64,000 nucleotides of DNA from Escherichia coli O127:H6 str. E2348/69 (GCF_000026545.1 NC_011601.1), one strand, 5' to 3'. Shown: positions 10,636 through 47,119, numbered from the stretch's first letter. The notes: generated by a model from the letters alone, not told the origin. A program made the numbers and translations.

Positions 10636-10660
10636 AAAGAAAAAAGGCCGCAGAGCGGCC
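10636..10660. repeat. attL core (direct repeat aaagaaaaaaggccgcagagcggcc)
   Basis: Identical 25-mer found again at 47095..47119; the hairpin ggccgcagagcggcc is the ihfA terminator stem. Confidence 0.85.
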
Positions 10661-10766
10661 ATAAACACAAACAAAAATCAATAAGTTAGATAATTATCAA
10701 AGACTTACAGACACACAAAAACACAGCCAACCACAACAAATAACAGGGATGTGGTCACTTTGTGGA

Positions 10767-11183
10767 TCATTCGCTCCCCTCTTTTTCCTTATTTCGTTGA
10801 ACGCCAATTGCGACACACGTACTAAGCAAATCTTTACATTTCTCTACATCTTCAGACTTACGCAATTTGATGCTTTTTACAGACTGCGGGCTACTGTCCG
10901 TAGCACGATACATCGTTATTTCAATATCATTTCGGTCTAAGAGTCCCATAATGGCTTTTGCAACCTCCACACCCTTCTTCGCGAAATCAAAGAACAGAGC
11001 AAGTTTATATGGATTTTCGACGGAAAAAACTTCAATTTTGCTAAAACCAACATCGTGTAGAGAAAAATATTGCTCAACCTCATCTCGAAGTTCTGGATCG
11101 CATACAATGTCTATTCTCCAGTACTGACCTAAATGCAAATCGCTATTAACTGTTTTTTCCACAACATCCTCCTTACCCAGCAA
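10767..11183 (-). CDS. hypothetical protein (cargo gene downstream of int, abutting attL)
   Basis: 138-aa ORF overlapping the int stop by 11 nt; acidic, no recognisable motif; no P2 counterpart at this position. Confidence 0.5.
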   Translation of the reverse strand: MLGKEDVVEKTVNSDLHLGQYWRIDIVCDPELRDEVEQYFSLHDVGFSKIEVFSVENPYKLALFFDFAKKGVEVAKAIMGLLDRNDIEITMYRATDSSPQSVKSIKLRKSEDVEKCKDLLSTCVAIGVQRNKEKEGSE

Positions 11184-12147
11184 TAGGATTAAATCTCACC
11201 GCATCCTGCAAGTAATCCGGCGCAAGATGGGCATAAATCATCGTTGTCTGAATCTTTGCGTGCCCCAGAATTTTCTGGAGCGTCAGAATATTGCCGCCGT
11301 TCATCATGAAATGACTGGCGAAGGTGTGGCGCAGCGCATGAACAGCCTGGCCGTCAGGAACATCAGGTGCGACCGTTTTGATGACATCGCGAACCAATGG
11401 ATAATCCAGCGTCGGAAACACCAGTTTCCCGCCCCGTTTTTTGATCTTTTCAAACAGGCTTTCAGAAATAGGAACGGTACGGTTTTTGCTGTTCTTCGTT
11501 TTTGAAAAAGTGATTCGACAATGAAGAACACGGCGCTGCTCCAGTGCCGCTACCTCGCCCCATCGCGCCCCGGTCGACAGAAGGATTTCGACAGCCAGCC
11601 GTTCATCGGGATTTTCAGCCAGTGCATCCAGCAACTGAACACATTCAGACTTACTCAGATATCCCATTTCGCGCTCGTTAACCTTCATTCCTTTAAGGCC
11701 TTGAACGGGGTTATCGTTAAGAAAATGGCCGGATGAGATGAGTGCGGTAAACATCGCGCTTAACGCCCCAATCTCTCGATTAATGGTGCTGGGCTGTATC
11801 CCCTGCTCTATCCTGGACACACGTAGCTCGGTGAGCATCGTTGTATTAAGTTTATGCACACACGGGTCATCCATTGCCTCACTCAAGCGCAGCAATTTAA
11901 GGCGCGTGTTATGCCCTGACTTCATTAGCTGGCCGTGGTATTTCCACCACAAGTCAATAAGCACCGACAGCGGACGGCGATCAATGGAGTTTCCTTTCCA
12001 CTCATTGTTATGCTGTTGCGCCAGCACCCACCGCTCATATAAAACTGCATCCGATTTCGTTTTAAATTTTTTGCGAATGCGTTTGCCTTTACGCCCCTCA
12101 GGGCGCATGTCAAGAAGATACCCTCCCGGAATTGATTTTATGCTCAT
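11173..12147 (-). CDS. int: P2-type tyrosine integrase
   Basis: Product from MSIKSIPGGYLLDMRPEGRKGKRIRKKF closely parallels P2 Int; C-terminal HALRHTFASHFMMNGG ... LGHAKIQTTMIYAHL catalytic motifs; the listed ORF extends upstream to 12297 but the P2-like start is the internal Met. Confidence 0.9.
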   Translation of the reverse strand: MSIKSIPGGYLLDMRPEGRKGKRIRKKFKTKSDAVLYERWVLAQQHNNEWKGNSIDRRPLSVLIDLWWKYHGQLMKSGHNTRLKLLRLSEAMDDPCVHKLNTTMLTELRVSRIEQGIQPSTINREIGALSAMFTALISSGHFLNDNPVQGLKGMKVNEREMGYLSKSECVQLLDALAENPDERLAVEILLSTGARWGEVAALEQRRVLHCRITFSKTKNSKNRTVPISESLFEKIKKRGGKLVFPTLDYPLVRDVIKTVAPDVPDGQAVHALRHTFASHFMMNGGNILTLQKILGHAKIQTTMIYAHLAPDYLQDAVRFNPIAG

Positions 12148-12196
12148 TCGTGAAACCCCAGCGTTACAAGACCACCATGCCCCCAGCGTTCCATGA

Positions 12197-12505
12197 TTAA
12201 CCGGGCTGTGTACCAGTCTTGCGGGATTTTTGAGAAGACGATGTGTTTTCTGGCCCATCAGGGGAGAGAGAGGGACTGATCTGCCCAGCAGCCTCATTTG
12301 TTTTTCCCGTCATAAGCCAATTCATGTACTTAAAAAAGCGAGGGTGATTAACAATCTTGATAAGCACTTCGCCCCCTATGTTTTCAATCCGCCCCGTTTC
12401 ATAACGACGCAAAGTGCCGATAGGCACATCAATCAGGCCGCAAAATTCTTCGCGCGTTAAATCCTCTGATTCACGAATCACTCTAATTTTTTCACCGATA
12501 AGCAT
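12197..12505 (-). CDS. C: immunity repressor C (HTH)
   Basis: 102-aa ORF; HTH segment and C-terminal GQISPSL ... SSSQKSRKTG resemble P2 C; divergent from the early operon. Confidence 0.8.
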   Translation of the reverse strand: MLIGEKIRVIRESEDLTREEFCGLIDVPIGTLRRYETGRIENIGGEVLIKIVNHPRFFKYMNWLMTGKTNEAAGQISPSLSPDGPENTSSSQKSRKTGTQPG

Positions 12506-12601
12506 TGACAGTGTTCCTATAAGTACACTAAGCTTGCGCGCAAGGTGTACTTATAAGTACACCAAGTCACAAACAACCACAGATAGCGCAGGTTATCACA
12601 C
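12506..12601. promoter_or_regulatory. immunity switch region with direct-repeat operators (Pe/Pc)
   Basis: Two copies of tataagtacac(t/c)aag about 33 bp apart, beside a ttgaca -35-like hexamer, between divergent C and cox-like genes. Confidence 0.6.
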
Positions 12602-12880
12602 ATGGCAAAAGTCCTGAACACACACGAACAGGCAGACTTTGAGCGTTTAGCAGCGTTCTATCCCTACCGCGATGAGCATGGGTTACCAGTACTTGAAGAA
12701 AGCCTGAAAGATTACGCAAAGCGTACCAACCAAGCTGTTAACACAGTGAAAAGACAGGCTGACAGAGGTTCAATTCCCATCAACCAGGATGAAAAGAACT
12801 CAAGACGCACAGTAAATCTCTTCGCTCTTTTCCTGAAAACAATCAGGAGCGCAGAAAAATACGTGCAGATGACAAAATAA
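12602..12880 (+). CDS. putative Cox/Apl-type early regulator and excisionase (positional call)
   Basis: 92-aa first ORF of the rightward early operon; no confident sequence similarity to P2 Cox. Confidence 0.45.
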   Translation: MAKVLNTHEQADFERLAAFYPYRDEHGLPVLEESLKDYAKRTNQAVNTVKRQADRGSIPINQDEKNSRRTVNLFALFLKTIRSAEKYVQMTK

Positions 12881-12894
12881 CGAGGTGTCATTTT

Positions 12895-13233
12895 ATGCTG
12901 AAGCAACGCCGTAATTTTCGTACCGGAACAGAACGCCACGCTAACCGTTTCACTACTAGTGCATCACGCAGCAACATCCGCTACAGCCTGAGTGATACAC
13001 ACGCAACGCCGGATGGCTACCCAGTAAAACAAATCGGCGAGCACGCCTGGCTGATTGAGAAAGCTGGAATCGTGATCCACAAATGCCCACGCAATCCGTT
13101 TACCGGAAACCGCATTTTTGCATTGAGCTGTGGTGACAATCAGTTCGGGCAGGATTTCACATTATACGAAGCACTTCGCACGGTTGATCGTCTGCTTCGC
13201 GGGCAAAGTTTTATTAAACAGGCTGATTTATAA
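12895..13233 (+). CDS. hypothetical early protein
   Basis: 112-aa ORF in early operon. Confidence 0.45.
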   Translation: MLKQRRNFRTGTERHANRFTTSASRSNIRYSLSDTHATPDGYPVKQIGEHAWLIEKAGIVIHKCPRNPFTGNRIFALSCGDNQFGQDFTLYEALRTVDRLLRGQSFIKQADL

Positions 13234-13243
13234 CAGGTGCTTT

Positions 13244-13531: not shown

Positions 13532-13539
13532 AGGGCGTT

Positions 13540-14934: not shown

Positions 14935-14940
14935 ATCACT

Positions 14941-17839: not shown

Positions 17840-18799
17840 ATGAAAATTTGTATCGACGACGGCTCCACCAACATCAAGCTGGCATGGACTGAGAACGGCG
17901 AACACCGCAACGCCATCAGCCCGAACAGCTTCAAGTCGGAATGGTCTGCGCCGTTCGGTGGCACGCAGCCCGCGAACTACATGCTTGATGGCGTGCGCTA
18001 TGGTTTTGATCCGGTCAGCGATCGCTTTGTCCAGACGACCGACACGCAATACCAGTACAGCGATGTGAATGTCATTGCCATTCATCATGCGCTGGTCAAA
18101 TCAGGCATCACGCCACAGGAGGTGGATGTGGTTGTCACCCTGCCACTGAGCGAGTATTTCGACACAAACGCACAGCCGGACATGGCCAACATCAACCGCA
18201 AAAAAGCGAACGTTATGCGCCCGGTGGAGTACCAAAACGGCGAGGCATTCACTATCCGTAACGTGCGGGTTATGCCTGAATCCATTCCGGCTGGCTTTAA
18301 AGCACTGGCTGACATGAGTCCGTTTGAATCCCTGCTGATTGTGGATTTGGGCGGAACCACGCTGGATGTGGCAAAGGTTCAGGGGCAACTGGCAGGTATC
18401 AGCCAGGTGTTTTGCGATCCACACGTAGGCGTTTCTCTGATGGCCGATGCCGTGCTGTCGGTGATGGCCACCAACGGTATGCGCACCAGTCACCACATCG
18501 CCAATACCATTATCGAACATCGCCACGATGAAGCCTGGCTGCGCCAGCACATCCACAATGACGCGCATTACGCCAGCCTGATGGCAGTTATTCGTGAAAA
18601 GGAGGAAACACTGAAACAACGCGTGATCCGCGCGCTGGCGGTTTTTTCGGGTTACGGGCGGGTGATGGTTGTCGGTGGAGGGGCGGAGATTGTGGCACCC
18701 GCTATCCGCGAAGCCTGCGGAGTTAATGCGACTTTCATCGCGGACGGGGTGCCACAGTTTGCTCTGGTTAATGGGCTGTACGCAATGGACAAGGAGTAA
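17840..18799 (+). CDS. ParM/StbA-type actin-like segregation ATPase
   Basis: 319-aa ORF; N-terminus MKICIDDGSTNIKLAWTE and the segments YSDVNVIAIHHAL, VMPESIPAG, LLIVDLGGTTLD, VMVVGGGAE parallel plasmid R1 ParM (StbA) along the whole length. Confidence 0.8.
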   Translation: MKICIDDGSTNIKLAWTENGEHRNAISPNSFKSEWSAPFGGTQPANYMLDGVRYGFDPVSDRFVQTTDTQYQYSDVNVIAIHHALVKSGITPQEVDVVVTLPLSEYFDTNAQPDMANINRKKANVMRPVEYQNGEAFTIRNVRVMPESIPAGFKALADMSPFESLLIVDLGGTTLDVAKVQGQLAGISQVFCDPHVGVSLMADAVLSVMATNGMRTSHHIANTIIEHRHDEAWLRQHIHNDAHYASLMAVIREKEETLKQRVIRALAVFSGYGRVMVVGGGAEIVAPAIREACGVNATFIADGVPQFALVNGLYAMDKE

Positions 18800-18803
18800 A
18801 CCA

Positions 18804-19115
18804 ATGACGACTCCAACCAGACGGATAAGTTTCTATCTGAAGCCCACCGCCGTCAAGAACGAAGGAGAAGCATGCGCCTGGCTGGACAGCCTTACACCAG
18901 AAGCCCGCAAAAGCGGCCAACGCGTGGCTTTTCTGGCCGGGCTGGCACTTCTGAAAATGAATCCGGCAGAGGCTTACCGACTGGCTGCATGGGCTGATGA
19001 TGAGGTGTTATCAGTGACACAAACCAAGACAGAACGCCCCGCGTCACAGCCAGTATCAACCGCACAGATAACCAGTCAGATGGCCGGAAATATCCGGGCG
19101 TTATTTCCTGAATAA
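18804..19115 (+). CDS. ParR/StbB-like adaptor protein
   Basis: 103-aa product from MTTPTRRISFYLKP inside the listed 18669..19115 ORF; N-terminal region parallels R1 ParR (RRxIxFxLxP ... LDS ... AGLAL); follows the parM-like gene. Confidence 0.6.
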   Translation: MTTPTRRISFYLKPTAVKNEGEACAWLDSLTPEARKSGQRVAFLAGLALLKMNPAEAYRLAAWADDEVLSVTQTKTERPASQPVSTAQITSQMAGNIRALFPE

Positions 19116-19493: not shown

Positions 19494-20576
19494 ATGGTAA
19501 ACGTGAGGGAGGATGAACTTTTCAAACTCATCGAGCAAGGCATCAAAGGCAACGCAAATGCATTTACACTCCTATGCAGAAAGATGATTAACAACATCCG
19601 TAAAAATGATGAGGCTTTAGCTTCTAAGCTGGCTTCGTTAGTTGCTGAGGGAACAGTATTACGTGGGGCATCTAGTAAGGCTCCTATGCCTGTGGATGGA
19701 GACTCCAGACGAAACCTTTTGCAGGAAACATCTGTCAACGCAATTGTTGAAGAACCTGTATGGAATACGGATATCTCAAAGAAGCTGGAGTCAATTGTTA
19801 ACGAAAGAGAGAATGCGGTTTCTTTGTTCAAAGCTGGTCTTGAACCTGTGAAGACGGTTTTACTTTCTGGCCCGCCAGGCGTAGGCAAAACAATGTCCGC
19901 ACATTGGCTTGCTGCAAAGTTAAATTTACCTCTTTTAACATTGGATCTCTCATCTGTAATGAGTTCTCTTTTGGGAAAAACAGGTAATAATATTAAATCC
20001 GTTATGGATTATGCCAAAGAGAAACCATGTGTCCTTTTGCTTGATGAATTTGATGCTGTTGCAAAAAGACGTGATGATGACAGGGACGTTGGAGAATTAA
20101 AACGTTTAGTTACTGTACTCCTACAGACCATAGATGAGTGGCCAGCGACCTCGCTTCTTGTTGCTGCGACTAATCACCCTGATATCTTAGATCCGGCTGT
20201 TTGGCGTCGATTTGAGCACATCCTTAAATTTAATATGCCATCAGTAGAACTGATAGATAGATATTTAGTCAATCATAATATTGAACCTGAACTATCTAAA
20301 AAACTTGCACCATTATTAGATGGCATGTCCTTTGCCATCATTAACCGTATTTTGAATTTCTCCAAAAAGAATGAGGTACTTAGAAATATTCCATTTGAAA
20401 GCTCATTAATAGAAGCCGTAATTACGGAGAGGGTTTCATTGGATGAGTTTAGCGATAATGATCTCAATATAATTAAATATCATTTTGACGGTTTTTCAAA
20501 TAGGAAGATAGCTGAATTAGTTGGTGTTTCACATCCAACAATCGCGAATAAATTACAAAAGTGGGGGATTAAATGA
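19494..20576 (+). CDS. AAA+ ATPase with C-terminal HTH-like segment (candidate defence component A)
   Basis: 360-aa ORF; Walker A LLSGPPGVGKT, Walker B VLLLDEFDAV, sensor-1/Arg-finger ATNHPDILDPAVWRRF; C-terminal NRKIAELVGVSHPTIANKL; AT-rich codon usage. Confidence 0.8.
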   Translation: MVNVREDELFKLIEQGIKGNANAFTLLCRKMINNIRKNDEALASKLASLVAEGTVLRGASSKAPMPVDGDSRRNLLQETSVNAIVEEPVWNTDISKKLESIVNERENAVSLFKAGLEPVKTVLLSGPPGVGKTMSAHWLAAKLNLPLLTLDLSSVMSSLLGKTGNNIKSVMDYAKEKPCVLLLDEFDAVAKRRDDDRDVGELKRLVTVLLQTIDEWPATSLLVAATNHPDILDPAVWRRFEHILKFNMPSVELIDRYLVNHNIEPELSKKLAPLLDGMSFAIINRILNFSKKNEVLRNIPFESSLIEAVITERVSLDEFSDNDLNIIKYHFDGFSNRKIAELVGVSHPTIANKLQKWGIK

Positions 20577-36128: not shown

Positions 36129-36150
36129 AAACGTTGGTTTGGGGGAAGGC
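36125..36150. repeat. candidate crossover site B (direct orientation)
   Basis: aaaacgttggtttgggggaagg at the start of cassette 2. Confidence 0.45.
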
Positions 36151-36615
36151 TCTGCACTGCCCGTTGGTGTGCCCGTTCCATGGCCCTCAGCCACGCCGCC
36201 AACGGGATGGCTGAAATGTAACGGCGCAGCATTTTCTTCTGAAAAGTACCCAAAACTGGCAAGGGCTTACCCCACCAATAAATTACCAGACTTACGCGGT
36301 GAATTTATCCGTGGCTGGGATGATGGGCGAGGAATTGATGCGGCACGCGCTTTATTGAGCATTCAAAACGGGATGTTGGAAAAACACCGCCATATTGTTG
36401 TAGCTAACGATGGATATGACACAAAGGATGAATGGGAGTTGGCCACGATTTTCAAAAAAACATATACGCAAGGCAGGGGGCTTGATGCCACAAATACAGG
36501 AGGGAGTTTGATTCCATCACCAACGCTTCATTCACGAGGAAGTATTGGTAACACAGGTGGTAGTGAAACCCGCCCCCGCAATATTGCATTTAACTATATC
36601 GTGAGGGCGGCTTAG
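36139..36615 (+). other. promoterless alternative tail-fibre C-terminal cassette 2 (direct orientation)
   Basis: The ORF begins exactly at the shared GEGSALPVGVPVPW block and ends with the shared PRNIAFNYIVRAA tail; central 70 aa differs from cassette 1. Confidence 0.7.
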
Positions 36616-36621
36616 TTATAT

Positions 36622-37233: not shown

Positions 37234-37700
37234 TATGCGGTTCTCACAATATAATTGAAGGCAATATTGCGTGGGTGGGTTTCATTCCCCTCTGAGGATT
37301 CCGTTCTGTATTGACTGGTAAATCTACCGTTAATTGCACCTTGCCGGACGGCGTTATCTGTCGACAACAGACTATCCCCTCCTTTGTCATTTGGCACCAA
37401 CACCGTGTTATCCCACGCATCCCATGACCGAATATTATGATAATGACTTCCTGTTAACCACCCCTGCATGCTTAAGATGCCCCTTCCGGCATCCACCCCG
37501 CGCCCATCATCCCAGCCACGGATAAATTCACCGCGTAAATCCGGTAATTTATTGGTGGGGTAGGCCTTTGCCAGTTTTGGGTACATTTCAGAAGAAAATG
37601 CTGCACCGTTACATTTCAGCCACCCTGCTGGCGGTGTGGCTGAGGGCCACGGAACAGGTACACCAACGGGCAGTGCAGAGCCTTCCCCCAAACCAACGTT
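37233..37700 (-). other. alternative tail-fibre C-terminal cassette 3 (inverted orientation)
   Basis: Minus-strand ORF (listed 37233..37748) encodes the same GEGSALPVGVPVPW ... PRNIAFNYIVRTA frame with a distinct central segment. Confidence 0.7.
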
Positions 37701-37708
37701 TTCGTTTT
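37683..37708. repeat. candidate crossover site C (inverted orientation)
   Basis: Reverse complement reads aaaacgaaaacgttggtttgggggaa. Confidence 0.45.
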
Positions 37709-37762
37709 TATCCCTACCTATACCAACTCTGTATTTTTCACGAAACAAAGAGGATGTTTTTT

Positions 37763-38362
37763 ATGCAAATTGGCTATATTCGTGTGTCAACAAATGACCA
37801 GAACACGGATTTACAACGCAATGCACTGAACTGCGCAGGATGTGAACTGATTTTTGAAGATAAAATCAGCGGAACGAAATCAGCCAGACCGGGATTGAAA
37901 AAACTGCTCAGAACGCTATCAGAAGGAGATACGCTGGTTGTCTGGAAGCTGGACAGACTGGGCAGAAGTATGAAACACCTGATCACGCTTATTGAGGAAT
38001 TGCGGGAAAAAGGTGTTAATTTCCGTAGTCTGACGGACAGCATTGACACATCAACACCCATGGGGCGTTTCTTTTTTCACGTCATGGGGGCTTTAGCCGA
38101 AATGGAACGTGAATTAATTGTAGAGCGTACACTGGCCGGGCTGGCAGCAGCACGCGCACAAGGACGCATTGGCGGACGTCGCCCGAAGTTGACAAAAGAA
38201 CAACACGAGCAAATAGCGAGGCTGATTAAAAACGGTCATGACAGGAAACAACTGGCGATCATTTACGACATCGGCATATCGACGATTTATCGTTATCACC
38301 CTGTAGGCGATATACAGGCTGAAGAAACAACCAGGCAGACTCAGGAAAATAAAAACCGCTAA
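37763..38362 (+). CDS. serine recombinase DNA invertase (Gin/Cin/Pin/Hin family)
   Basis: 199-aa product MQIGYIRVSTNDQNTDLQRNAL ... LVVWKLDRLGRSMKHL ... GRIGGRRPKLT, near-colinear with Mu Gin; the listed ORF 37568..38362 includes a spurious upstream extension. Confidence 0.92.
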   Translation: MQIGYIRVSTNDQNTDLQRNALNCAGCELIFEDKISGTKSARPGLKKLLRTLSEGDTLVVWKLDRLGRSMKHLITLIEELREKGVNFRSLTDSIDTSTPMGRFFFHVMGALAEMERELIVERTLAGLAAARAQGRIGGRRPKLTKEQHEQIARLIKNGHDRKQLAIIYDIGISTIYRYHPVGDIQAEETTRQTQENKNR

Positions 38363-38388: not shown

Positions 38389-38883
38389 TCAAAACAGCCC
38401 TTTAACGGAGCTGGCCGCGCTGTTAAGGGATGATGTGACCTTATCTTTGAAGCCGGACAGCATATCACTGAACGATGAGGATTGCAGGCGCTCCCGCAAA
38501 TCCTCATCACAGCGTTCAAGAGTCAGTGAAAATTCTATCTTTTTCGCCTTACCGTAGCGATCAAACTCGGAACGGGTCGTATTCGTTTCAGTCAGTACAT
38601 ACATGCCGTAAATCTGCCCGACACCATCAATCAGAGGCCAGGGGCGTCCTGTATATGCCTGCGTGGTCAGCAACGAAAGCGACACTTCGCCACCTGTAAT
38701 TTCAGGATAAAGCACGCCGGAAAGCACGATGCGATCATCACCTGCGCCGATATACTGCCAGCTTGCTGAACGGTTAACGCGTTCATTTTTCACATGCCGC
38801 CAGCTTTTGTTTTGCTGTAACTGCTGATGCGGCAATGTGCGCAGCTCAAAAACAAACATGCCGTAGATCATCATCATGGCCAT
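38389..38883 (-). CDS. U: tail protein U
   Basis: 164-aa ORF; strong parallel to P2 gpU (MMM..G.FVF ... LSGVLYPE.TGG ... AWPLI.G.G.IYGM.V ... IDFSLTL.R.DE). Confidence 0.88.
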   Translation of the reverse strand: MAMMMIYGMFVFELRTLPHQQLQQNKSWRHVKNERVNRSASWQYIGAGDDRIVLSGVLYPEITGGEVSLSLLTTQAYTGRPWPLIDGVGQIYGMYVLTETNTTRSEFDRYGKAKKIEFSLTLERCDEDLRERLQSSSFSDMLSGFKDKVTSSLNSAASSVKGLF

Positions 38884-38889
38884 GACTCC

Positions 38890-41733
38890 TCAATCTTTAT
38901 CGTAAAAACTGCCACGTCCGGCACGGTCGCGTCGTTCCAATTCTGCCCTGACCATTTCACCGACCAGTTTCGCCAGTTTGCGGGGATTCTGCGTAACAAC
39001 GTTATGCAGATGAACATGAATTTCACCGCCAAATCCGGAGACAACAGGCTCCCGGTTACGGGAAGTTGCAGGAACTGATGCCACTGGCGATCGTATGGCC
39101 TCCGCCACCGGGCGGGAGCTGGCCGCAACAACAGGGACCAGCGCCGGAGGCAGAGGAGTCGGGACCACGGGTGTGATGTTGATTGCGGAAGCAGGCTTAC
39201 TGACCTGCGCAATCTTCCGCTCCTGCCACTCCCCACGAACAGCAAGTGCGCGGGGCAGATTCTTAAAGACAATATCGCCGGGGCCAATGCGTTTTTTCGT
39301 CTCATCAACCAGCTTACCTGTGTTATCAGCAATTTTGCTGAGTCTGCGTAGCGTACCGGTATTGCTGTCTGTGAGCGGTTTGTTGTCTTTGGGTTTATCA
39401 CCTCCGGTGCCATTGCCATTTTCCACAGGCTTCGGCGGATTGATTTTCGCCAGGTCCCCCTGAAGCAAGGCAACCTTGTCCTGAAGAATGGCCGCACGCT
39501 GTGCGTCTTCGATTTTCTTGCGCGCCCTTTCCGCTTCATCCGGAAGGACGCCAAGTTTTTCAAGTATCCACGCCAGCGTATCCAGTAGCATTTTTGCAGG
39601 CGTCAGAACAAGTTGTAACGCACCGCCAAGAACGTTACCGAATATCTCGCCAGCACTGGTACATTTATCCAGCGTTTCCTTGCTGGACTCCATCGGTGAC
39701 AGCAGCGATTTAAACCAGTTAAACACCTGGCTGATCCCGCTTCCGATTGCGTCAAAAACAGGACCAAACCGTTCAAAGGTTTCGCGCAACGGGGCCAGCC
39801 TTTCCATAATCCCGCTGAACACCCCGGCAAAAAATGCCCTGATGGGATCCCAGTATTTCCAGATAAGAACGGCAGCTCCGGCAAGTGCAGCCACGATAAG
39901 ACCAACCGGACTGAACAGCGCCCCGATAGCGCCTCCCAGTAAAGAAACGGAACCCGTCACCATTCCCCATAGTGCTGGCAGGACCCTGACAGCATTCATT
40001 GATCCGGTCAGGAGAGAAAAACCAAGACGCAGTTTTGCCAGCGGACCAGCAAGCACACCAATAGCCAGCGACAACGAGCCAACCGTTGCAGTCATTGCCA
40101 GCAACGCACCGCCTGCTATCAGTAGCTGGCGCGTCAGTGCCGGATGGGCCTGCGCCAGCGCCGTCACCCTTGATACCACCCGCGTGAGCCACTGCGTGAC
40201 AGAACGCAGCGGACCGTCAATCAGATCTGCAATGCGGATGCGCAACCCTTCCCATGCACTGCCGAGTGATTTCAGATCGCCGTCAAGGTTGTTGGCCATA
40301 ACCTTTGCTGTGCGTTCAGCCTCACCGCGCGCGCCTTCAAGTTCTTTTCTCAGTTTGGGTAAGGAACCGTCACCCGCTGCATCAACGAGCGCCATAAACG
40401 ATGTGAAAGCCTCTTCTCCGGCAATGTCCTTAAAGAACGATACCCGGTCAACTTCCCCGTATTTGCGGGTGGCTTTATAAAGGTCGGCCAGCACATCCTC
40501 CATCGGGCGCATTTTGCCCCCGGCATCCGAGACGGACACGCCCAGCTCTTTCAGAGCTTCTGCCGCCGCCTTTGGCGGTGATGCCAGACGAGCCAGGCTG
40601 GCACGCATTGCCGTCCCGGCATCACTCCCTCTGATGCCCATATTCGCCAGCACGCCAGCCATCGCTGCGGCCTGCTCCAGCGATATTCCCAGCTTACCCG
40701 CCACCGGACCTGCATATTTCATGGTTTCGCCCAGTGCGCGAAGGTCAGTGTTGGTACGGGTAAACGCTGCGGTGAGTGTGTCACCGACCCGGTCCATCTG
40801 GTCAGCAGAAAGGCCGAACTGCGTCAGGATATTTGAGCCAATATCTGCCGTCTCGCCGAGATCCATACCGCCAGCCGTTGCCATGCTCAGCACTCCGGGA
40901 AGCGCAGCCTGAATGGCCTGCGGTGTGAAGCCAGCCATTGCAAGAAATGCCTGCCCACTGGCGGCATCGCCTGCGGTGAACTGCGTTTCAGAGCCAAGTT
41001 TTAACGCCTGCTCACGCAGCGCCTTAAACTGCGGGCTGTTCTGGTCGATTCGCGTCAGCGCCTGAACGCGGGACATCTCTTTGCCGAACCCGATCGCGGG
41101 CTGCAAAAAACGCCCGGCAGCATAGCCGCCCGCCGCTGCCGCACCAATTGCCAGCGCACCACCTGTTTTCAGTTTTCCCGCGGTTTCCTGCGCGCGCGAA
41201 TACCGCTCACGCGCCCGCGTTACACGCGCAAGCGCCTGCCGTTCGCGTTCAAGCTGGTTGTTGTACTGTTCGGTGCGTCTGATGGCCTGCTGGATGGTGT
41301 TATCGCTGCCTGTCAGGGAAATGCCGTGGCGTTTCAGCTCTCCGCCAAGTTCCCGCATTTTCTGAATTTCCCGTGTGCGCGATTCATTCAGGCGTTCAAG
41401 CCGGGTGCTTAACTGCTGCATCAGCTTTTGTTGTTTTTCGCTGAGCACTGTACCCGTGCGTTGTAACTGATTAAGAGCGTTAAGCTGGCGTCGTGCTTTC
41501 AATATGCCAGCATCCGCTTTACTGACAGCGTCACGGGCGCGCTCAAATGAACGCGCCTGACGCTCGAGATTTTTGATCGCCCCCTGCGTTCGCTGGATGG
41601 AGTCACCAAACTGCCCCATCAGGCGGCGGGCGTTTTCGGCAGGCCGGGTCAGCCTGTCAACGGCGCTGAAAGCGACCCGGATATCAAGAGTCTTCATTGT
41701 CTGTATTCCCGCTGCGAAGTGCCGCCCGCTCAC
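38890..41733 (-). CDS. T: tail tape measure protein
   Basis: 947-aa Ala/Gly/Leu-rich ORF with coiled N-terminal region; position after E/E'. Confidence 0.85.
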   Translation of the reverse strand: MSGRHFAAGIQTMKTLDIRVAFSAVDRLTRPAENARRLMGQFGDSIQRTQGAIKNLERQARSFERARDAVSKADAGILKARRQLNALNQLQRTGTVLSEKQQKLMQQLSTRLERLNESRTREIQKMRELGGELKRHGISLTGSDNTIQQAIRRTEQYNNQLERERQALARVTRARERYSRAQETAGKLKTGGALAIGAAAAGGYAAGRFLQPAIGFGKEMSRVQALTRIDQNSPQFKALREQALKLGSETQFTAGDAASGQAFLAMAGFTPQAIQAALPGVLSMATAGGMDLGETADIGSNILTQFGLSADQMDRVGDTLTAAFTRTNTDLRALGETMKYAGPVAGKLGISLEQAAAMAGVLANMGIRGSDAGTAMRASLARLASPPKAAAEALKELGVSVSDAGGKMRPMEDVLADLYKATRKYGEVDRVSFFKDIAGEEAFTSFMALVDAAGDGSLPKLRKELEGARGEAERTAKVMANNLDGDLKSLGSAWEGLRIRIADLIDGPLRSVTQWLTRVVSRVTALAQAHPALTRQLLIAGGALLAMTATVGSLSLAIGVLAGPLAKLRLGFSLLTGSMNAVRVLPALWGMVTGSVSLLGGAIGALFSPVGLIVAALAGAAVLIWKYWDPIRAFFAGVFSGIMERLAPLRETFERFGPVFDAIGSGISQVFNWFKSLLSPMESSKETLDKCTSAGEIFGNVLGGALQLVLTPAKMLLDTLAWILEKLGVLPDEAERARKKIEDAQRAAILQDKVALLQGDLAKINPPKPVENGNGTGGDKPKDNKPLTDSNTGTLRRLSKIADNTGKLVDETKKRIGPGDIVFKNLPRALAVRGEWQERKIAQVSKPASAINITPVVPTPLPPALVPVVAASSRPVAEAIRSPVASVPATSRNREPVVSGFGGEIHVHLHNVVTQNPRKLAKLVGEMVRAELERRDRAGRGSFYDKD

Positions 41734-41920
41734 GCCAGCTAACCACTTCGCCGGGAGTCATCATGAAGATTTCGGCGGGCGACCAGTTAAAAATGGTGGC
41801 AATATCCGCCACCAGATCTTCGATGTGCTCAAAGCACACCAGGGTGATTACGCTGCCGTCTCCTGCACGCTCTTCGCGCCAGAGTCTGGCTCGCTCATAA
41901 AATTTACAGCCACAGCGCAC
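41684..41920 (-). other. E' extension frame (read via -1 frameshift from E)
   Basis: ORF in the -1 frame overlapping the 3' end of E and the start of T, as in P2 E+E'. Confidence 0.6.
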
Positions 41921-42222
41921 AACTGAATAAAATCGCGTGACGACATTTTTTTAATCATCACTTCATCCAGTTGTGGCGAGGTCACGCGAGGCAACAGCGT
42001 GAACATGGTATCCGCTTTCAGATTCAGCACATCAGACAGCGACAGACCACGCAGGGATCCCGCCTGCTCAATAGCCCCGGTGATCTCCACATATGTGATT
42101 TTTTCGGCACCACGCTCAATTGGCCGGGAAAGTTTTACACCACGTTCGACAGCCATATCCTCACCTGCCGTCACATCATCCGCTACGGTGTTATTCCGGG
42201 TTTCAGTATCGATATTTTTCAT
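41848..42222 (-). CDS. E: tail assembly chaperone E
   Basis: Parallels P2 gpE (LRGxSL ... LLPRxTxPxL); the true start may be the internal Met about 22 codons in. Confidence 0.75.
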   Translation of the reverse strand: MKNIDTETRNNTVADDVTAGEDMAVERGVKLSRPIERGAEKITYVEITGAIEQAGSLRGLSLSDVLNLKADTMFTLLPRVTSPQLDEVMIKKMSSRDFIQLCAVAVNFMSEPDSGAKSVQETAA

Positions 42223-42277
42223 CAGTTGTCTCCTTTTCAGTCAGAGGCGACGCACTGCGCCGCCTGCATATTACTTA

Positions 42278-42790
42278 TCAGCCAAGCCCGAGCGCGGAAC
42301 GGATGCGATCGGGCACAATGTCCTTGCCGTCCTTCCGGTAAATGAAGTTCAGCAGGTCAATCTCCCACAACGGACGATCGTTAACACTCAGCTTGTAGTA
42401 GGTGTTTTTAATGGCGTAAGTGTGTGATGTGGCTTCGCCCTGTTTGGCTTCCCCCATATCAATTTCCGTCACACGTCCGCGCATTTCGACTTCATACAGG
42501 TCGCTTTCTGCATCGGTGTAATATTCACCCGCAAAACGCAGCAGCGTGCCGTCAATCGTGCCGCCATACTTAAGGAACAGCTCACGAACTGCGCCCCCCA
42601 TGACAAAGCTCGCATCAAGCGCGGAGTCGTCCAGACCGAGATCAATACTTACCGCCCCCATCATGCCACCACCCCGGTAGCTGTCGGTTTTGCGCGTCAG
42701 CTTAGGCAGGGTGACGGACGTCACCTTACCCACTTCGTTTTCACCATCCACAAACAGCGTAAAAAAGCGAAGATGTTTTGGCACAGCCAT
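42278..42790 (-). CDS. FII: tail tube protein
   Basis: 170-aa ORF; same size and position as P2 FII. Confidence 0.85.
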   Translation of the reverse strand: MAVPKHLRFFTLFVDGENEVGKVTSVTLPKLTRKTDSYRGGGMMGAVSIDLGLDDSALDASFVMGGAVRELFLKYGGTIDGTLLRFAGEYYTDAESDLYEVEMRGRVTEIDMGEAKQGEATSHTYAIKNTYYKLSVNDRPLWEIDLLNFIYRKDGKDIVPDRIRSALGLG

Positions 42791-43974
42791 CAGGCACCTC
42801 CCAGCACCGCAAATGCGGGTTCAAAGTATTCATCAGTAAACGTCTGGTAAAGCTCCATGTCTTCCAGTGGCGGAACGGGCGTATATTTGTAGCGAATACG
42901 CACACGCCCCTGACGTAAATCCGTGGTGCTGTTATCCACCACGTCATACCAGCACTCCGCGCCAATCAGTTTCCCGGCAGTCACCAGTGAATCCAGTTTT
43001 GCCCTGATGGCACTGATAACATCCTTCACGTTCGCAGGCGTCAGTGGACTGTCGATGGTTTCAAACTGCGCTTCCGCAATTGAATCAGCCAGCACCTGTG
43101 CGGTTCGGGTATACACCTCAAAGATGTAGGCGTTCGTTTCCGGTGTGCGGTTGCCCCAGAAGCGGAACCCGTTGCGACGAATAATGGTCGTGATTTCTTT
43201 GTTGTTGAGGCTGTTGGCATCGCTGTCTTCGGCCTGCAACGACCAGAACACATGCCTCGACATCCCCAGCACATTTTTAACCGGAACGTTGGACAGTGAT
43301 TTGTGCCAGCCCTGCTCATGGTCAATGTACGCACGAAGGCCGCACGCATAGGCAGGCGCGGGGAACGTTTCGTTTTTGCCACTTTTCGGGTTGTAGGCGA
43401 TGAAGTCCGGCCATAAGAGCATCACCTCACGTTCGTTGAATTTCTGGCGGTAGGTAATCGCATCAGCCATCGTGTCACAGCCATGACATGAGGCATACAC
43501 AAACGCGCGCAGTTTACCCGCAATCACGCACAGGGATTTTGTCACCGCCTCCGTGTCCAGCTCCGGCGCGGCCAGAATACGCGGACGGTATCCGATGCTT
43601 TCATCCTGCTCTGCAACAAGCAGCGCATACATCCCCGTATAGCTGCCGTCAGATTCAGAACCACCGATAACCAGTTGATCCTGCGTCTTTCCGTCTTCTT
43701 CTTTGTGTTCAGCCACGCGAACGACGATCACCTTTGTGCTCACCTGGTCTGCGATAGCCTTAAGCGCACGATAAAGCGTCCCCGTTGTCCCGCATTTTCC
43801 CAGCACGTCATTGACGCGGGTCAGCAGTGTGGGCTTGTTCAGCGGGAACAGCTTCGCGTCCGCATCATCCGCCGTTGCCACGATACCGATAACACTGGAA
43901 TCAACATCATTAATCGCTGTTACCAGGTCGGTATTTTCCGTAACACGGGCACCATGAAAACGAGTTTCACTCAT
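42790..43974 (-). CDS. FI: contractile tail sheath protein
   Basis: 394-aa product from MSETRFHGARV inside the listed 42790..44148 ORF; colinear with P2 FI (KLRAF.Y.S..GC, GWHK.LSNV, RR.GFRFWGNRT, YTRTAQV.AD, YTPVPPLE). Confidence 0.9.
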   Translation of the reverse strand: MSETRFHGARVTENTDLVTAINDVDSSVIGIVATADDADAKLFPLNKPTLLTRVNDVLGKCGTTGTLYRALKAIADQVSTKVIVVRVAEHKEEDGKTQDQLVIGGSESDGSYTGMYALLVAEQDESIGYRPRILAAPELDTEAVTKSLCVIAGKLRAFVYASCHGCDTMADAITYRQKFNEREVMLLWPDFIAYNPKSGKNETFPAPAYACGLRAYIDHEQGWHKSLSNVPVKNVLGMSRHVFWSLQAEDSDANSLNNKEITTIIRRNGFRFWGNRTPETNAYIFEVYTRTAQVLADSIAEAQFETIDSPLTPANVKDVISAIRAKLDSLVTAGKLIGAECWYDVVDNSTTDLRQGRVRIRYKYTPVPPLEDMELYQTFTDEYFEPAFAVLGGA

Positions 43975-44131
43975 AGCTTCAGCCCCTTGTATCCGTAAAA
44001 TGATTCGGCAACAATCATCACCCACCACGCGCGTAATCTCACCCCTGCGCCGTTCTCCCGACCCGGCGACAACAAAAAGCAGTAACCCCCTCCGCACGCA
44101 CATGCGACCATGCCGCACAGGGAGGGAACAG

Positions 44132-45232
44132 ATGACCGATACCACCATGCAATTGCTCAGTCAGGGCACAGACCCCGTGAAAATGCCGGATTTTGATATT
44201 CTCGCGGAGGGTAAAACGCTGTCAGGCGTGGCAGAGCGCCTGATGAGCCTGTCACTGACCGACAACCGGGGATTTGAGGCGGACCAGCTCACCATCACGC
44301 TGGATGATGCGGATGGTCAGTTGCAGCTACCGCCACGGGGCGCGCGCCTGACGGTTCTCATTGGCTGGAAAGGAGAACCGCTGACAGAAAAAGGCACTTA
44401 CATTGTTGATGAAATCGCTCACGAAGGACCGCCGGACAGGCTGACTGTTTCAGCCAGAAGCGCAGATTTTCGGGATGAATTTAACGTTAAACGTGAGGTG
44501 TCCTGGCATGATGTGACCGTTGAGCGCGTGGTATCTGCCATCGCTCATCGGTACGGTCTGAAACCGCAAATCAGCGAAATACTGATGGATATCGAAATCG
44601 ACCACGCCGACCAGACCGAAGAAAGCGACATGTCCTTCCTTACGCGCATGGCGGAAATGCTGGGCGCAATCACCACGGTAAAAAGCGGTAATCTGTTATT
44701 CATCATGCCAGGCGGTCGCGTGAACGCACTGGGCCAGCCGTTGCCATCGTTCGCCATCACACGCAGCAGCGGCGATCGCCATCAGTTCCGCATTGCTGAC
44801 CGCGAGGCGTATACGGGTGTACGCGCCTACTGGCTTGATCTTAATTACGGGAAAAAGAAAAAAGTCAGCGTGAAACGCCGCAAACCGAAAAAAGAGAAAA
44901 GCAGCAGCCGTGAAGGTGACTATATGGAAGGTGCGGAAGGCAACGTGTTTGTGTTACGCAAAACTTATCAGAACGAGCAGGCAGCAAGACGCGCAGCGGC
45001 GGCAAAATGGCAGCAGCTACAACGCGGAGCCGCATCATTTTCCATCACGCTGGCACGTGGACGAGCAGAACTCTACCCCGAAATGCATGGCACGGTAACA
45101 GGATTTAAAAGCGAGATTGATAATCAGGACTGGATCATTGCAAAAGCCGAGCACACCATTGATAACAGTGGCTTTACCACGCAGCTTGAGCTTGAAGCCA
45201 AAATCCCGGAATGGATAGCAGAAACAGAGTAA
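44132..45232 (+). CDS. D: tail protein D (late control D / baseplate hub family)
   Basis: 366-aa product from MTDTTMQLLSQG with gggaggga RBS, inside the listed 44000..45232 ORF; position before ogr. Confidence 0.75.
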   Translation: MTDTTMQLLSQGTDPVKMPDFDILAEGKTLSGVAERLMSLSLTDNRGFEADQLTITLDDADGQLQLPPRGARLTVLIGWKGEPLTEKGTYIVDEIAHEGPPDRLTVSARSADFRDEFNVKREVSWHDVTVERVVSAIAHRYGLKPQISEILMDIEIDHADQTEESDMSFLTRMAEMLGAITTVKSGNLLFIMPGGRVNALGQPLPSFAITRSSGDRHQFRIADREAYTGVRAYWLDLNYGKKKKVSVKRRKPKKEKSSSREGDYMEGAEGNVFVLRKTYQNEQAARRAAAAKWQQLQRGAASFSITLARGRAELYPEMHGTVTGFKSEIDNQDWIIAKAEHTIDNSGFTTQLELEAKIPEWIAETE

Positions 45233-45402: not shown

Positions 45403-46092
45403 ATGCCATGTCAAAGGATCCATGTTATGAATATGCAAATTTTTATCGCACCAGCAGCCACAGTTGCTGCAGTCTGCCTTGCTGCATATTTTGCTTTACG
45501 AAATGAACGTAAAAAGAAAGCACTTGAGATTAGAACAACTCAACTAGATCGAATATCTGAGCTAGTAAACCGAGCATCTACCAATTTGATGCAATATACA
45601 GGTACTCTTGCCTCTATACTGGAAGCGCACGCCAAAGATAATTATCTACCGAACAAAAAATTTGACATTAATGTAATTAGCAAATGGAAAGATTGCCTCG
45701 ATGAGAGTGAGGTCTGGGCGATTGATATACAGCAACTAAGAACATGTCAGCACAGTCTGGAGTTTCATCGTGAAAAAGAATGGGCTGAATGGAAAAAAAT
45801 AATTCCACCATTACTTGATAAAATTAACCAATTTTTTCTCATATCTAAGCCAGGGCAACCTGTTACGTTTATAAATGGCCAAAACAAAACAGCTGATGAA
45901 CTACTTGTTTTCTCAAGATATTTGAGAAAACAAACAGCAGAAATTGAATCAGTACGTCAGCTGTTACTTTCTCAAATGAGAGAGGAATTCATCGAGTTAA
46001 CTAGCTTTGAACCTGTCACAATGTTTAGCTTATTTAAATCAATAAAGAAAAATGTCATGCAATTTTTCTGTATCAGTGCTCTTAAAAATTGA
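45403..46092 (+). CDS. hypothetical membrane-anchored protein (AT-rich moron between D and ogr)
   Basis: 229-aa ORF; one N-terminal TM helix (IFIAPAATVAAVCLAAYFAL) followed by a Lys/Glu-rich soluble domain; strongly AT-rich codons; the start may be an internal Met (MNMQ). Confidence 0.55.
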   Translation: MPCQRIHVMNMQIFIAPAATVAAVCLAAYFALRNERKKKALEIRTTQLDRISELVNRASTNLMQYTGTLASILEAHAKDNYLPNKKFDINVISKWKDCLDESEVWAIDIQQLRTCQHSLEFHREKEWAEWKKIIPPLLDKINQFFLISKPGQPVTFINGQNKTADELLVFSRYLRKQTAEIESVRQLLLSQMREEFIELTSFEPVTMFSLFKSIKKNVMQFFCISALKN

Positions 46093-46241
46093 CGCTCTGT
46101 TGCAAGCAACCCCAGTGTTAAACTGGGGTTATTCTTGCTAAGAGACCTTTCTACGGCATCAGTAAACAAAACGAACTATCAGTTGGAGTCTGAGCAAGTT
46201 CAGCCTAAACTAGCGACAGCACTACGTTAAGGGAGGTCGCT

Positions 46242-46502
46242 ATGTTCCGTTGTCCGCTTTGTGGCGCATCTGCCCGTATCCGCACCAGTCGTCCGGAAAA
46301 TGATTCAAACACCGTGCGGCAAAAGTATTACCAGTGTAACAACCTGGAATGCGGCGTATGCTTCTCAACACTGGAAGCTTTCCATAAATTCACATCGAAA
46401 CACGCCTCCGGCATCCACTCTTCAGAAGGTATCCCGTGGCATGAGCTGCCAGCTTCACACAGGGGAAACAATCAGATGAGCTTGCCTTTACCTCAGAATT
46501 AA
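46242..46502 (+). CDS. ogr: late gene activator, Ogr/Delta zinc-finger family
   Basis: MFRCPLCGASARIRTSR ... YYQCNNLECGVCFSTLE matches the P2 Ogr CxxC-N-CxxxxC pattern. Confidence 0.85.
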   Translation: MFRCPLCGASARIRTSRPENDSNTVRQKYYQCNNLECGVCFSTLEAFHKFTSKHASGIHSSEGIPWHELPASHRGNNQMSLPLPQN

Positions 46503-46562
46503 CAGGCAGAATTGCCGGAGTAACAAAAACGCGATAGATTACGCGCGGGTGCCTTTCGGCTG

Positions 46563-46775
46563 ATGGTCGGAGGGAATACCCGAAGGCCAGATGTGGAAAG
46601 GCCCCGGAAAACATCTCTGTTTAACCGAGGCCCTAACCGCATTACCTTGACAAGTGAAAGGTTAGCGCCTCTCCGGAAAAGGAGCAAGTGCTATGTCGCA
46701 AAAATCGCTTACGGCCATCACGTTCTGCGTGACGGCAATCCTCATCATCTGGATGTTGCACGGTTCGCTGTGTGA
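46563..46775 (+). CDS. mok-like overlapping leader reading frame of the hok-type locus
   Basis: 70-aa ORF overlapping the hok-like gene in another frame, as in hok/mok/sok loci. Confidence 0.4.
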   Translation: MVGGNTRRPDVERPRKTSLFNRGPNRITLTSERLAPLRKRSKCYVAKIAYGHHVLRDGNPHHLDVARFAV

Positions 46776-46833
46776 AATACGGATGAGCTTCTGGGGAGCG
46801 GAGTTTGCGGCGTTCTTACAGTGTAAGCAGTAA
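46693..46833 (+). CDS. Hok/Gef-family type I toxin (small membrane protein)
   Basis: 46-aa ORF MSQKSLTAITFCVTAILIIWMLHGSLCEIRMSFWGAEFAAFLQCKQ: one TM helix, then the Hok-family SLCEIR and AAF motifs; ggag RBS upstream; not in the ORF track (under 60 aa). Confidence 0.7.
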   Translation: MSQKSLTAITFCVTAILIIWMLHGSLCEIRMSFWGAEFAAFLQCKQ

Positions 46834-46922
46834 GGAAACCGCGACGGGGGAGCAATCCCCCGTCAATCGGTTGCCAGGGTAAGGTCGATAAGGCACCCTA
46901 TCTCACAGACATGAACAACAAA

Positions 46923-46954
46923 CCCGCAGCATAAAAACTGCGGGTTTTCTTTTT
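46923..46954 (+). terminator. rho-independent terminator near the prophage right end
   Basis: cccgcag-cataaaaa-ctgcggg followed by ttttcttttt. Confidence 0.65.
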
Positions 46955-47094
46955 GGTGTCCTCACCGACTTGAAACAGTGATCAGACTATAAGACAAAGC
47001 CCACAATGTAGCGGGCTTACTCCCCTCCCCCCACTAAATGTGGACGCATCGTGGAACGAAGAGATATAAAACATTATAAATCAATTAGTTATTG

Positions 47095-47119
47095 AAAGAA
47101 AAAAGGCCGCAGAGCGGCC
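47095..47119. repeat. attR core (direct repeat) overlapping the ihfA terminator
   Basis: Same 25-mer as at 10636..10660; on the minus strand it gives the ggccgctctgcggcc hairpin plus T-tract just downstream of ihfA. Confidence 0.85.

Follow-up and report, generated by a model that had tools for sequence, protein, structure and literature searches.

Two 25-base repeats mark the ends of a 36.5-kb P2-family prophage between btuC and ihfA in Escherichia coli O127:H6 E2348/69

Genes and repeats between btuC and ihfA

In the 64,000-nucleotide stretch of Escherichia coli O127:H6 str. E2348/69 (NC_011601.1) that was analysed here as the window, the 25-mer AAAGAAAAAAGGCCGCAGAGCGGCC occurs in two exact copies on the plus strand, at 10636-10660 and 47095-47119, when both strands are searched. 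As the first-pass annotation had claimed, these are its only two sites, given that no third copy was found in the window on either strand with up to three mismatches (expectation from shuffles, 0.00). The identity of the two copies ends at exactly 25 bp, the preceding base being A on the left and G on the right, and the following base A and T, respectively. The left copy, recovered by repeat search, terminator scan and folding, is the attL core, and the right copy, recovered by repeat search, folding and empty-site alignment, is the attR core. Beside attL lies the host gene btuC (9597-10577, minus strand), with its start codon 58 bp to the left of the repeat, and beside attR lies ihfA (47137-47436, minus strand), with its stop codon 17 bp to the right, both genes being placed by annotation and genome alignment. 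On both outer sides the window annotation contains host genes only, and no phage gene was found beyond either repeat. A tRNA target for the insertion was rejected, because there is no tRNA or tmRNA gene in the window.

Inside the left copy, the first gene is a 131-aa ORF without assigned function (orf131, 10767-11162, minus strand; annotated as a hypothetical protein, phrog_14142), and it is followed by int (11173-12147, minus strand), which by homology and Pfam encodes a 324-aa tyrosine integrase of the P2 Int type. Next come a helix-turn-helix immunity repressor of the C type (102 aa, 12197-12505, minus strand; phrog_147, E 2.5e-31) and, divergent from C, a putative Cox-like excisionase/repressor (92 aa, 12602-12880, plus strand; phrog_575, E 1.1e-07). 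The earlier statement that integrase and repressor lie just inside this copy is right as to their proximity, but it is orf131, and not int, that comes first. The Cox-like ORF sits in the cox position of P2, and its phrog_575 match is modest, the best-scoring family being one of unknown function. The slot that orf131 occupies, between the P' arm described below and int, is variable, and other copies of the prophage carry unrelated cassettes there; orf131 and its alternatives had no PADLOC or Pfam match and matched only PHROGs of unknown function.

From 12931 to 46950, P88 homology and annotation delineate a P88-like (probably Xuanwuvirus) backbone, in which accessory cargo accompanies the genes for replication, head, lysis and tail. 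The P88 homology (~96%) starts at 12931, and the shared ogr-hok module ends near 46950. Of the left 25 kb, 73% aligns with P88 at ~96% identity; of the tail block, 98% aligns at 94.5%. The whole-genome product of identity and coverage would fall near the usual genus line of 70%, and we regard the backbone as P88-like rather than that of P2 itself. P88 and other Xuanwuvirus members (P884B11 and Citrobacter phage Shae_phiSM) are colinear with the prophage at 94-97% nucleotide identity from the gene after cox to ogr/hok, and its structural genes, a full-length gpD among them, form a complete set in the same order as in P88, an isolated phage. At the right end, an ogr/Delta-type late-gene activator (46242-46502, plus strand; annotation and PHROG search) and a Hok/Gef family toxin gene (46693-46833, plus strand; annotation, phrog_251, E 1.3e-22) lie inside the right copy, where they had been placed from the start.

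The FI-U tail operon of this P88-like backbone lies on the minus strand, opposite to that of P2; its origin as a rearrangement made by an invertase was rejected, since P88, P884B11, Shae_phiSM and E. coli SE11 all have it in colinear order. The element does contain a second recombinase gene, a serine recombinase at 37763-38362, and in principle this enzyme might have carried out the integration instead of the tyrosine integrase. We consider this hardly credible, as the serine recombinase adjoins inverted repeats of 215-239 nt on either side of alternative tail-fibre ends, carries a DNA invertase annotation in P88-like phages with other integration modules, and is 9-27 kb away from att sites whose layout is of the tyrosine integrase type. 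Such tail-fibre inversions have in fact been reported for the P2-like prophages of E2348/69 (PMC4272514).

The empty site and its occupancy in E. coli

The first-pass annotation had proposed that a genome without the insertion should carry one copy of the 25-mer between btuC and ihfA, and this is what was found: the left flank, one 25-mer and the right flank form one uninterrupted match in 5120 of the 5426 complete E. coli genomes. Across the empty-site join, 517 bp are 100% identical in strain 536, which has one copy of the 25-mer, and in others, and the genes annotated next to the join are btuC and ihfA. Homology to the window restarts at exactly 47095 in the unoccupied genomes, and the three-way alignment of attB, attL and attR makes the join exact to the base. 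The core is common to attP and attB, being repeated at the prophage ends and single in the empty site. The two 25-base repeats are, then, the true ends of the P2-family prophage, which measures 36,459 bp to the base with one core counted.

Between genes, short hairpins rich in G+C and accompanied by A/T runs are frequent, and the core scores as a generic terminator; on these grounds the repeat could be a coincidence, or a by-product of homologous recombination between two similar terminators, and not a crossover core. This explanation is very improbable and already contradicted by the exact single-copy empty site and by the P2-type arm and IHF sites, whose spacing from the core on either phage side is as expected, besides the lack of any third copy in the 64 kb and the recurrence of the same junction with the same Int in hundreds of genomes.

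Three counts agree on the occupancy of the site in the 5426 complete genomes, namely a split site in ~306, the attR junction in 293 and the int gene in 298, so that a phage with this Int/att module is present in ~5.5% of complete E. coli genomes; 94% have an empty site. In IMG/VR, 42 of 42 contigs with the core/P' junction share the btuC-side flank and encode an Int at least 97.8% identical, with differing cargo. The same Int/att junction with such varied cargo therefore indicates, at the level of sequence comparison, many separate integrations by one Int/att module. Outside E. coli the phage was not found in a search of one genome per species with an 18-mer across the core/P' junction, whose seven matches were all in unrelated taxa and are best read as chance; the same search gave no hybrid cores able to place the crossover point.

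For another strain, E. coli SE11, this site has been published, with prophage PP_SE11-4 described as lying “between btuC and ihfA” with a 25-nt duplication (Oshima et al. 2008, DNA Res 15:375; PMC2608844). In SE11 the identical 25-mer begins at the published start, 1,928,706, and its second copy begins one base past the published end, 1,964,507. PP_SE11-4 and the E2348/69 prophage share the site, the 25-nt duplication, the P88-like backbone and the C repressor protein accession, and differ by a few bases in the arm regions and by their cargo: two genes instead of orf131 in the slot between P' arm and int, three hypothetical genes instead of ParMR and IetAS in the cos-adjacent hotspot, and other genes between D and ogr. 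A literature search on ihfA and prophages gave nothing beyond the SE11 paper. Since the site and its 25-base duplication were already published in 2008 for another strain, our finding is correct but ordinary, and conceptually it adds nothing new, given that terminator-targeting by P2-family integrases is already in the literature.

The integrase and the reconstructed attP

From end to end, the integrase aligns with its homologue P2 Int (46% identity, E 2e-111, 324/337 aa), the R...HxxR...H...Y region included, and it contains the Pfam domains PF24624 (Int_N, E 4.5e-28) and PF00589 (Phage_integrase, E 3.3e-19). When the two prophage ends are joined, the predicted attP junction reads ...AGTTATTG-[25-mer]-ATAAACAC..., and paired arm-type repeats appear on both sides of the core, as in the attP plan of P2; the predicted attB junction, which excision would leave behind, reads ...CAGTGA-[25-mer]-TTTTTAGTT.... 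In the P arm, TGTGGAC and CGTGGAA, direct repeats of the Int arm type that start 11 bp apart (47039-47058, plus strand; starts 47039 and 47050), lie 56 bp left of the core start, compared with 59 bp left of the core in P2. In the P' arm, TGTGGTC and TGTGGAT, also 11 bp apart (10750-10769, plus strand; starts 10750 and 10761), lie 114 bp right of the core start, compared with 115 bp in P2. Of the three occurrences of the motif GTGGW-N6-GTGGW in the 64 kb, where 0.43 would be expected, two are the predicted P and P' arms. The P' arm is kept in all 42 related viral contigs, and the GTGGA cores of the P arm are conserved in SE11.

Directly left of the attR core, AATCAATTAGTTA (47079-47091, plus strand) matches the IHF consensus WATCAANNNNTTR with no mismatches, in the same position, between P arm and core, as the annotated IHF site of P2, and its SE11 copy, AATCAATCGGTTA, differs only at N positions. 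Two more IHF-consensus matches (10676-10688 and 10695-10707) lie in the spacer between core and P' arm (10661-10749, plus strand), which corresponds in position to the Cox-binding region of P2 attP and where, judging from that position, Cox may bind. No convincing motif for Cox boxes was common to this spacer and the C-cox intergenic region, there being just short similarity of the AACCACA type. Excision in P2 needs Cox.

Compared with P2 (AF063097; host site locI), the prophage shares the homologous Int, two direct TGTGGNC-type repeats per arm, a predicted IHF site between P arm and core, ~90 bp from core to P' arm (the Cox region in P2), the order and orientation of int-C and the putative cox, and a core made of an A-run followed by a short hairpin. 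Nevertheless, the P2 core, AAAAAATAAGCCCGTGTAAGGGAGATT, is alike at only 14 of 24 positions, a weak similarity (shuffle p ~0.03), the host target differs, and the P' arm, which P2 has within the 3' end of int, is separated from that gene in the prophage by the variable gene slot. In coliphage WPhi the Int is likewise of the P2 type (48.6% identity), the arm repeats are the same TGTGGAC pairs, and between the arms lies a hairpin that, with its T-run, resembles a terminator, but this hairpin is CCCCCACATGATGTGGGGG, its arm spacing is 196 versus 170 bp, and its T-run is on the other side of the hairpin. The att-int-C-cox module as a whole is absent from 50,697 phage records, and its absence from the Xuanwuvirus phage records means that those phages must use other attachment sites. 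The closest Int in these records (53.6%), that of Klebsiella CP052639, is accompanied by the same P' arm motif, and a shared core was rejected in this case since a different hairpin lies ~90 bp away.

The full-length P2 Int homologue and the P2-like arrangement of arms, IHF site and core support the proposal of site-specific integration by a P2-type integrase. Very likely, what lies at 10636-47119 is a P2-family prophage (Peduoviridae, P88-like) in integrated form, which has the two repeats as its attL and attR cores and was inserted by its own Int.

A different question is whether the prophage can still leave. P2-type phages are not known to be SOS-inducible, and the attP form was not found in any collection searched: the 370-nt reconstructed attP had no megablast match in the 50,697 phage records, an exact 38-mer had 0 matches in IMG/VR, and an exact 37-mer had 0 in JGI metagenomes, so that present-day mobility is something we infer. 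Moreover, in some lineages, such as O111 strains, int is truncated at nt 793 and joined to a downstream gene, and therefore decay does occur. All of this would fit a past Int-mediated integration now fixed as a non-excising, domesticated or defective prophage with fossil att sites. We think such fixation unlikely, because the two cores are identical, nothing is missing from the length of Int and its catalytic region aligns with that of P2 Int, there is a Cox-like gene, and the structural genes, including a full-length gpD, are complete and colinear with an isolated phage. The many cargo variants on one Int/att at one site, with 94% of genomes empty, also argue for recent, repeated integration.

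The core as the predicted ihfA terminator

The first-pass annotation had claimed that the core holds the stem of the ihfA terminator, and the core turned out to hold more than that. On the minus strand it consists of the hairpin GGCCGC-TCT-GCGGCC followed by TTTTTTCTTT, so that the complete predicted intrinsic terminator of ihfA, GGCCGCTCTGCGGCC plus TTTTTTCTTT on the ihfA strand, with a 6-bp G+C stem, a 3-nt loop and a T-run, lies inside the 25 bp. Both identical copies have this G+C-rich hairpin with a T/U run on the transcribed strand. The terminator scan reported the attL copy as terminator-like on the minus strand, and its hairpin folds with a z of -3.1; the attR core, which is the native predicted ihfA terminator, is absent from the scan output, probably because the tool extended the stem into the flanking A/T runs, and its hairpin folds at -17.2 kcal/mol (z -4.1). 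Because the whole predicted terminator is within the core, each junction retains one, as had been suggested for the integration event. It had also been suggested that ihfA termination and the btuC upstream region are left intact; the predicted ihfA terminator is indeed unchanged, and the upstream region of btuC is intact as far as the core, but not beyond it, because the DNA further upstream is now phage.

We suggest that the core of the phage attP reproduces the intrinsic terminator of host ihfA and has P2-type arm sites for Int, as well as a site for IHF, on its flanks. The tyrosine integrase, with host IHF binding alongside it, would recombine the attP core with the same 25 bases in the ihfA-btuC interval, the crossover presumably falling somewhere within the 25 bp. 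Since the 25-bp identity spans the whole terminator, recombination would duplicate it: attR would retain the ihfA terminator unchanged, while at attL the identical terminator would stand 58 bp ahead of btuC and close the leftward transcription unit of C, int and orf131.

The same hairpin is also the paired stem of the Rfam model RF02082 for STnc540, an ihfA 3'-derived sRNA, which scores 67.4 bits at the empty site, 41.3 bits at attR and 22.5 bits at attL, the gathering threshold being 38 bits. STnc540 was described in Salmonella as an ihfA 3'-derived, ProQ-bound sRNA (PMC6315103). The ihfA terminator might thus be a phage target for more than a safe harbour, possibly coupling the expression of lysogeny genes to ProQ/IHF circuits, a speculation to which we give very little weight. 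The prophage lies immediately downstream of the gene that encodes IHF-alpha, its presumed cofactor in integration. If the speculation were true, the phage C-int-orf131 transcript would share at attL the 3' hairpin of ihfA mRNA and STnc540, and a chimeric phage 3'UTR with the STnc540 terminator could be stabilised by ProQ or compete for it.

In summary, exact base-level boundaries are now fixed for one P2-like prophage of the EPEC reference strain, which are of use in annotation and in engineering, for example as a defined attB/Int pair. For the phage and its host, this choice of target would allow insertion without loss of the predicted ihfA terminator or of the 58 bp upstream of btuC.

The 25-bp repeat and the empty ihfA-btuC site

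The 25-mer AAAGAAAAAAGGCCGCAGAGCGGCC has two copies, both on the plus strand, at 10636-10660 (the attL core) and 47095-47119 (the attR core), and its confinement to these two places, noted in the first-pass annotation, was confirmed, with no third match of up to three mismatches on either strand of the 64-kb window and 0 in 100 shuffles. Identity between the surroundings of the two repeats stops exactly at the 25-mer borders. To the left of the left repeat lies btuC (9597-10577, minus strand), with its start codon 58 bp away, followed by btuE and btuD, and to the right of the right repeat lies ihfA (47137-47436, minus strand), with its stop codon 17 bp away, followed by pheT and pheS. The RefSeq annotation has no phage genes outside the repeats, which would have spoken against these boundaries, and there are no tRNA or tmRNA genes in the 64-kb window.

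We reconstructed attB as the left flank, one 25-mer, and the right flank, and searched it against 5426 complete E. coli genomes, 5120 of which gave a single contiguous match, many of them at 100% identity along all 517 positions, over annotated btuC and ihfA genes. The three-way alignment of attB, attL, and attR places the flank switch at the 25-mer borders, and in unoccupied genomes, e.g., K-12 and 042, the right-junction similarity starts at query base 896, that is, window position 47095, where the right repeat starts. The expected empty site, with one 25-mer between btuC and ihfA, was thereby found exact to the base, and strain 536 has exactly one 25-mer copy there.

The core reads GGCCGC-TCT-GCGGCC and then TTTTTTCTTT on the ihfA strand, and it therefore holds a complete intrinsic terminator; the stem previously described is present, but as part of a whole terminator. 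Folding of 61-nt contexts gives the hairpin at both junctions (-17.2 and -12.9 kcal/mol, z-scores -4.1 and -3.1). A terminator scan lists the attL copy and not the attR copy, despite their 25 identical bases, and probably the AAAAA and TTTTT around the attR hairpin lengthen its stem and upset the tail rule of the scan. It follows from the sequence that the ihfA terminator at attR would be unchanged by integration, and that the identical predicted terminator at attL would end the leftward C-int-orf131 unit ahead of btuC, and that on the plus strand of attR the predicted hairpin, together with the host TTTTT, could end transcription arriving from ogr/hok on the left. The region upstream of btuC, said to be intact, is so up to the core, but the DNA farther upstream is now phage; a weak promoter-like match for btuC (TTTTCA-17-TAAAAT, 10638-10610) at the core edge is kept after integration.

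The Rfam STnc540 model (RF02082) reaches from the ihfA 3' end across the terminator into the btuC leader, with matches at 47051-47195 and 10578-10701, both on the minus strand, and at 1684-1842 of locus L004. In Salmonella, STnc540 is a ProQ-dependent sRNA from the ihfA 3' end (PMC6315103). Against this model the empty site scores 67.4 bits; the prophage divides the match into parts of 41.3 bits at attR and 22.5 bits at attL. Given that the paired terminator stem in the model is formed by the att core, the 3' end of the sRNA should survive integration.

Integrase, attP layout, and mobility

The 324-aa integrase encoded by int (11173-12147) shares 46% identity with P2 Int (E 2e-111) in an end-to-end alignment that takes in the regions of the catalytic Arg, His-x-x-Arg, His, and Tyr, and it has Pfam Int_N and Phage_integrase domains. 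We rebuilt attP by joining the right end of the prophage to its left end, and compared it with the GenBank-annotated P2 attP, where the Int P arm, IHF site, Int core, Cox sites, and Int P' arm are marked. The P arm repeats TGTGGAC and CGTGGAA are 11 bp apart, the first being 56 bp left of the core start vs. 59 bp in P2, and the P' arm repeats TGTGGTC and TGTGGAT are also 11 bp apart, the first being 114 bp right of the core start vs. 115 bp in P2. In the 64-kb window there are three occurrences of GTGGW-N6-GTGGW vs. 0.43 expected, and two of them are the P and P' arms, in the same orientation. Adjoining the core there is a perfect match to the IHF consensus, AATCAATTAGTTA, where P2 has one mismatch at the same position; between E2348/69 and the SE11 copy (prophage PP_SE11-4) the IHF matches differ only at consensus N positions. 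Phage WPhi has the same attP plan built around a different terminator-like hairpin, and the P2 core is loosely like that of the prophage, with an A-run and then a short hairpin (shared bases, 14 of 24; p ~0.03 in shuffles). By P2 precedent and these patterns, Int, IHF, and Cox would bind at the predicted attP sites. The C-cox intergenic region (12506-12601) has TATAAGTACAC twice in direct orientation, at a spacing of about 32 bp, and by analogy with O1/O2 of P2 these copies are likely C-repressor operators.

Excision and current activity of the prophage are putative: phage records, IMG/VR, and JGI metagenomes yielded no sequence in the attP configuration, and a search for the core/P' junction in one genome per species gave chance hits only. 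The same absence from these three collections would suit a copy in E2348/69 that no longer moves, which we consider rather improbable. Site-specific integration by a P2-type integrase, as first proposed, is supported by the homology to P2 Int, the P2-like attP layout, and the exact empty site.

Backbone, tail-fibre region, and variable cargo

In the RefSeq annotation, the left-end module consists of orf131 (131 aa, 10767-11162, minus strand), int, the C-type repressor, and the divergent cox-like gene, followed by the early genes and replication endonuclease, the ParM/ParR-like genes, an AAA ATPase and S8 peptidase pair, the portal, terminase, capsid, lysis, baseplate, and tail-fibre genes, the invertible tail-fibre segment with its serine invertase, the minus-strand tail genes U-T-E-FII-FI, D, and, at the right end, a 221-aa ORF, ogr, and hok. 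The integrase and repressor are near the left end, as described before, but the first gene is orf131; ogr and hok are indeed the last annotated genes before the right repeat.

From 12931, right after cox, to ~46950, the prophage is colinear with P88, Xuanwuvirus P884B11, and Citrobacter phage Shae_phiSM at 94-97% nucleotide identity, and hence its backbone is P88-like. None of the 50,697 phage records has an equivalent of the module that runs from the P arm to cox inclusive; the reconstructed attP has no match among them, and the best integrase match is 53.6%. As judged from these comparisons, the prophage is a P88-like backbone with a swapped integration-immunity module. The minus strand carries the tail genes U-T-E/E'-FII-FI (38389-45232 region), an orientation opposite to that of D and to the order in P2, and we rejected a rearrangement because P88-like phages share this colinear order, a trait of the group. 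PGAP calls a 263-aa gpD fragment (44441-45232); WPhi gpD residues 15-384 are matched by the ORF that runs from 44000, and D looks intact, with a full-length gpD.

In the invertible region (35692-38362, with the serine invertase at 37763-38362), inverted repeats of 215-239 nt, 89-92% complementary, enclose alternative fibre C-termini and assembly genes. The three related arms (35692-35906, 36127-36365, and 37465-37703) suggest more than two configurations, which would agree with a report of shufflon-like phase variation in one P2-like prophage of E2348/69, a strain carrying P2-like prophages with invertible tail-fibre segments (PMC4272514).

The slot from the P' arm to the int stop codon (10770-11172) varies, as also seen in loci L005-L046, L054 (3599-4414), and L055 (1357-2156). 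The core/P' junction is present in 42 IMG/VR contigs, always in integrated form and next to the same btuC-side flank. Although their Int is at least 97.8% identical, the slot has at least four unrelated fillings: orf131 in E2348/69 and three cassettes of two genes, one for a CxxC...CxxC protein (phrog_4293) and the other for a coiled-coil protein bearing a C-terminal hydrophobic helix. These slot genes have no PADLOC or Pfam match, and a Klebsiella P2-like element has the same slot arrangement. The searched text of Rousset et al. 2022 (PMC9122126) describes a cos-adjacent cargo hotspot in P2-like phages, partition systems included, and makes no mention of the P' arm-int slot. In that known hotspot lies the low-GC (0.40-0.43) pair of AAA ATPase (360 aa) and S8 peptidase (734 aa) genes at 19494-22777, for which PADLOC gives matches to IetA/IetS, an anti-phage system (E 3.6e-89 and 6.6e-41), whereas the SE11 copy has three different genes there. 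The ParM-like and ParR-like genes (17840-19115) lie between the replication endonuclease and this defence cargo; for the partition systems of some P2-like phages, the same searched text suggests plasmid-like maintenance. The 221-aa ORF between D and ogr (45427-46092) sits within a kilobase of low GC content (0.40), and neither PHROG nor PADLOC gives a match for it; the SE11 copy has a different 384-aa gene on the opposite strand at this position, which is thus a third variable slot.

Distribution and recurrent use of the site

The site is split in ~306 complete E. coli genomes, the ogr-hok-core-ihfA junction is found in 293, and the int gene, always chromosomal, in 298, while only 169 genomes have at least 80% coverage of the attL-orf131-int-C stretch, because the DNA from the P' arm to int is variable. 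In some O111 genomes (H127, H128), int matches to nt 793 only and abuts a DUF4761 gene, which implies that they have lost the int 5' end, C, and cox, and would keep a locked-in remnant at the same site.

Oshima et al. 2008 (PMC2608844) reported an E. coli SE11 prophage between btuC and ihfA with a 25-nt duplication, and since the same 25-mer starts in that region at 1,928,706 and again at 1,964,508, the site and the duplication were already published; both the integration site found here and its kind were known before. Considering that one Int/att module is combined with differing cargo, in varied serotypes and sources, and that 94% of the genomes are empty, the sequence comparison indicates repeated independent integrations at the ihfA-btuC site.
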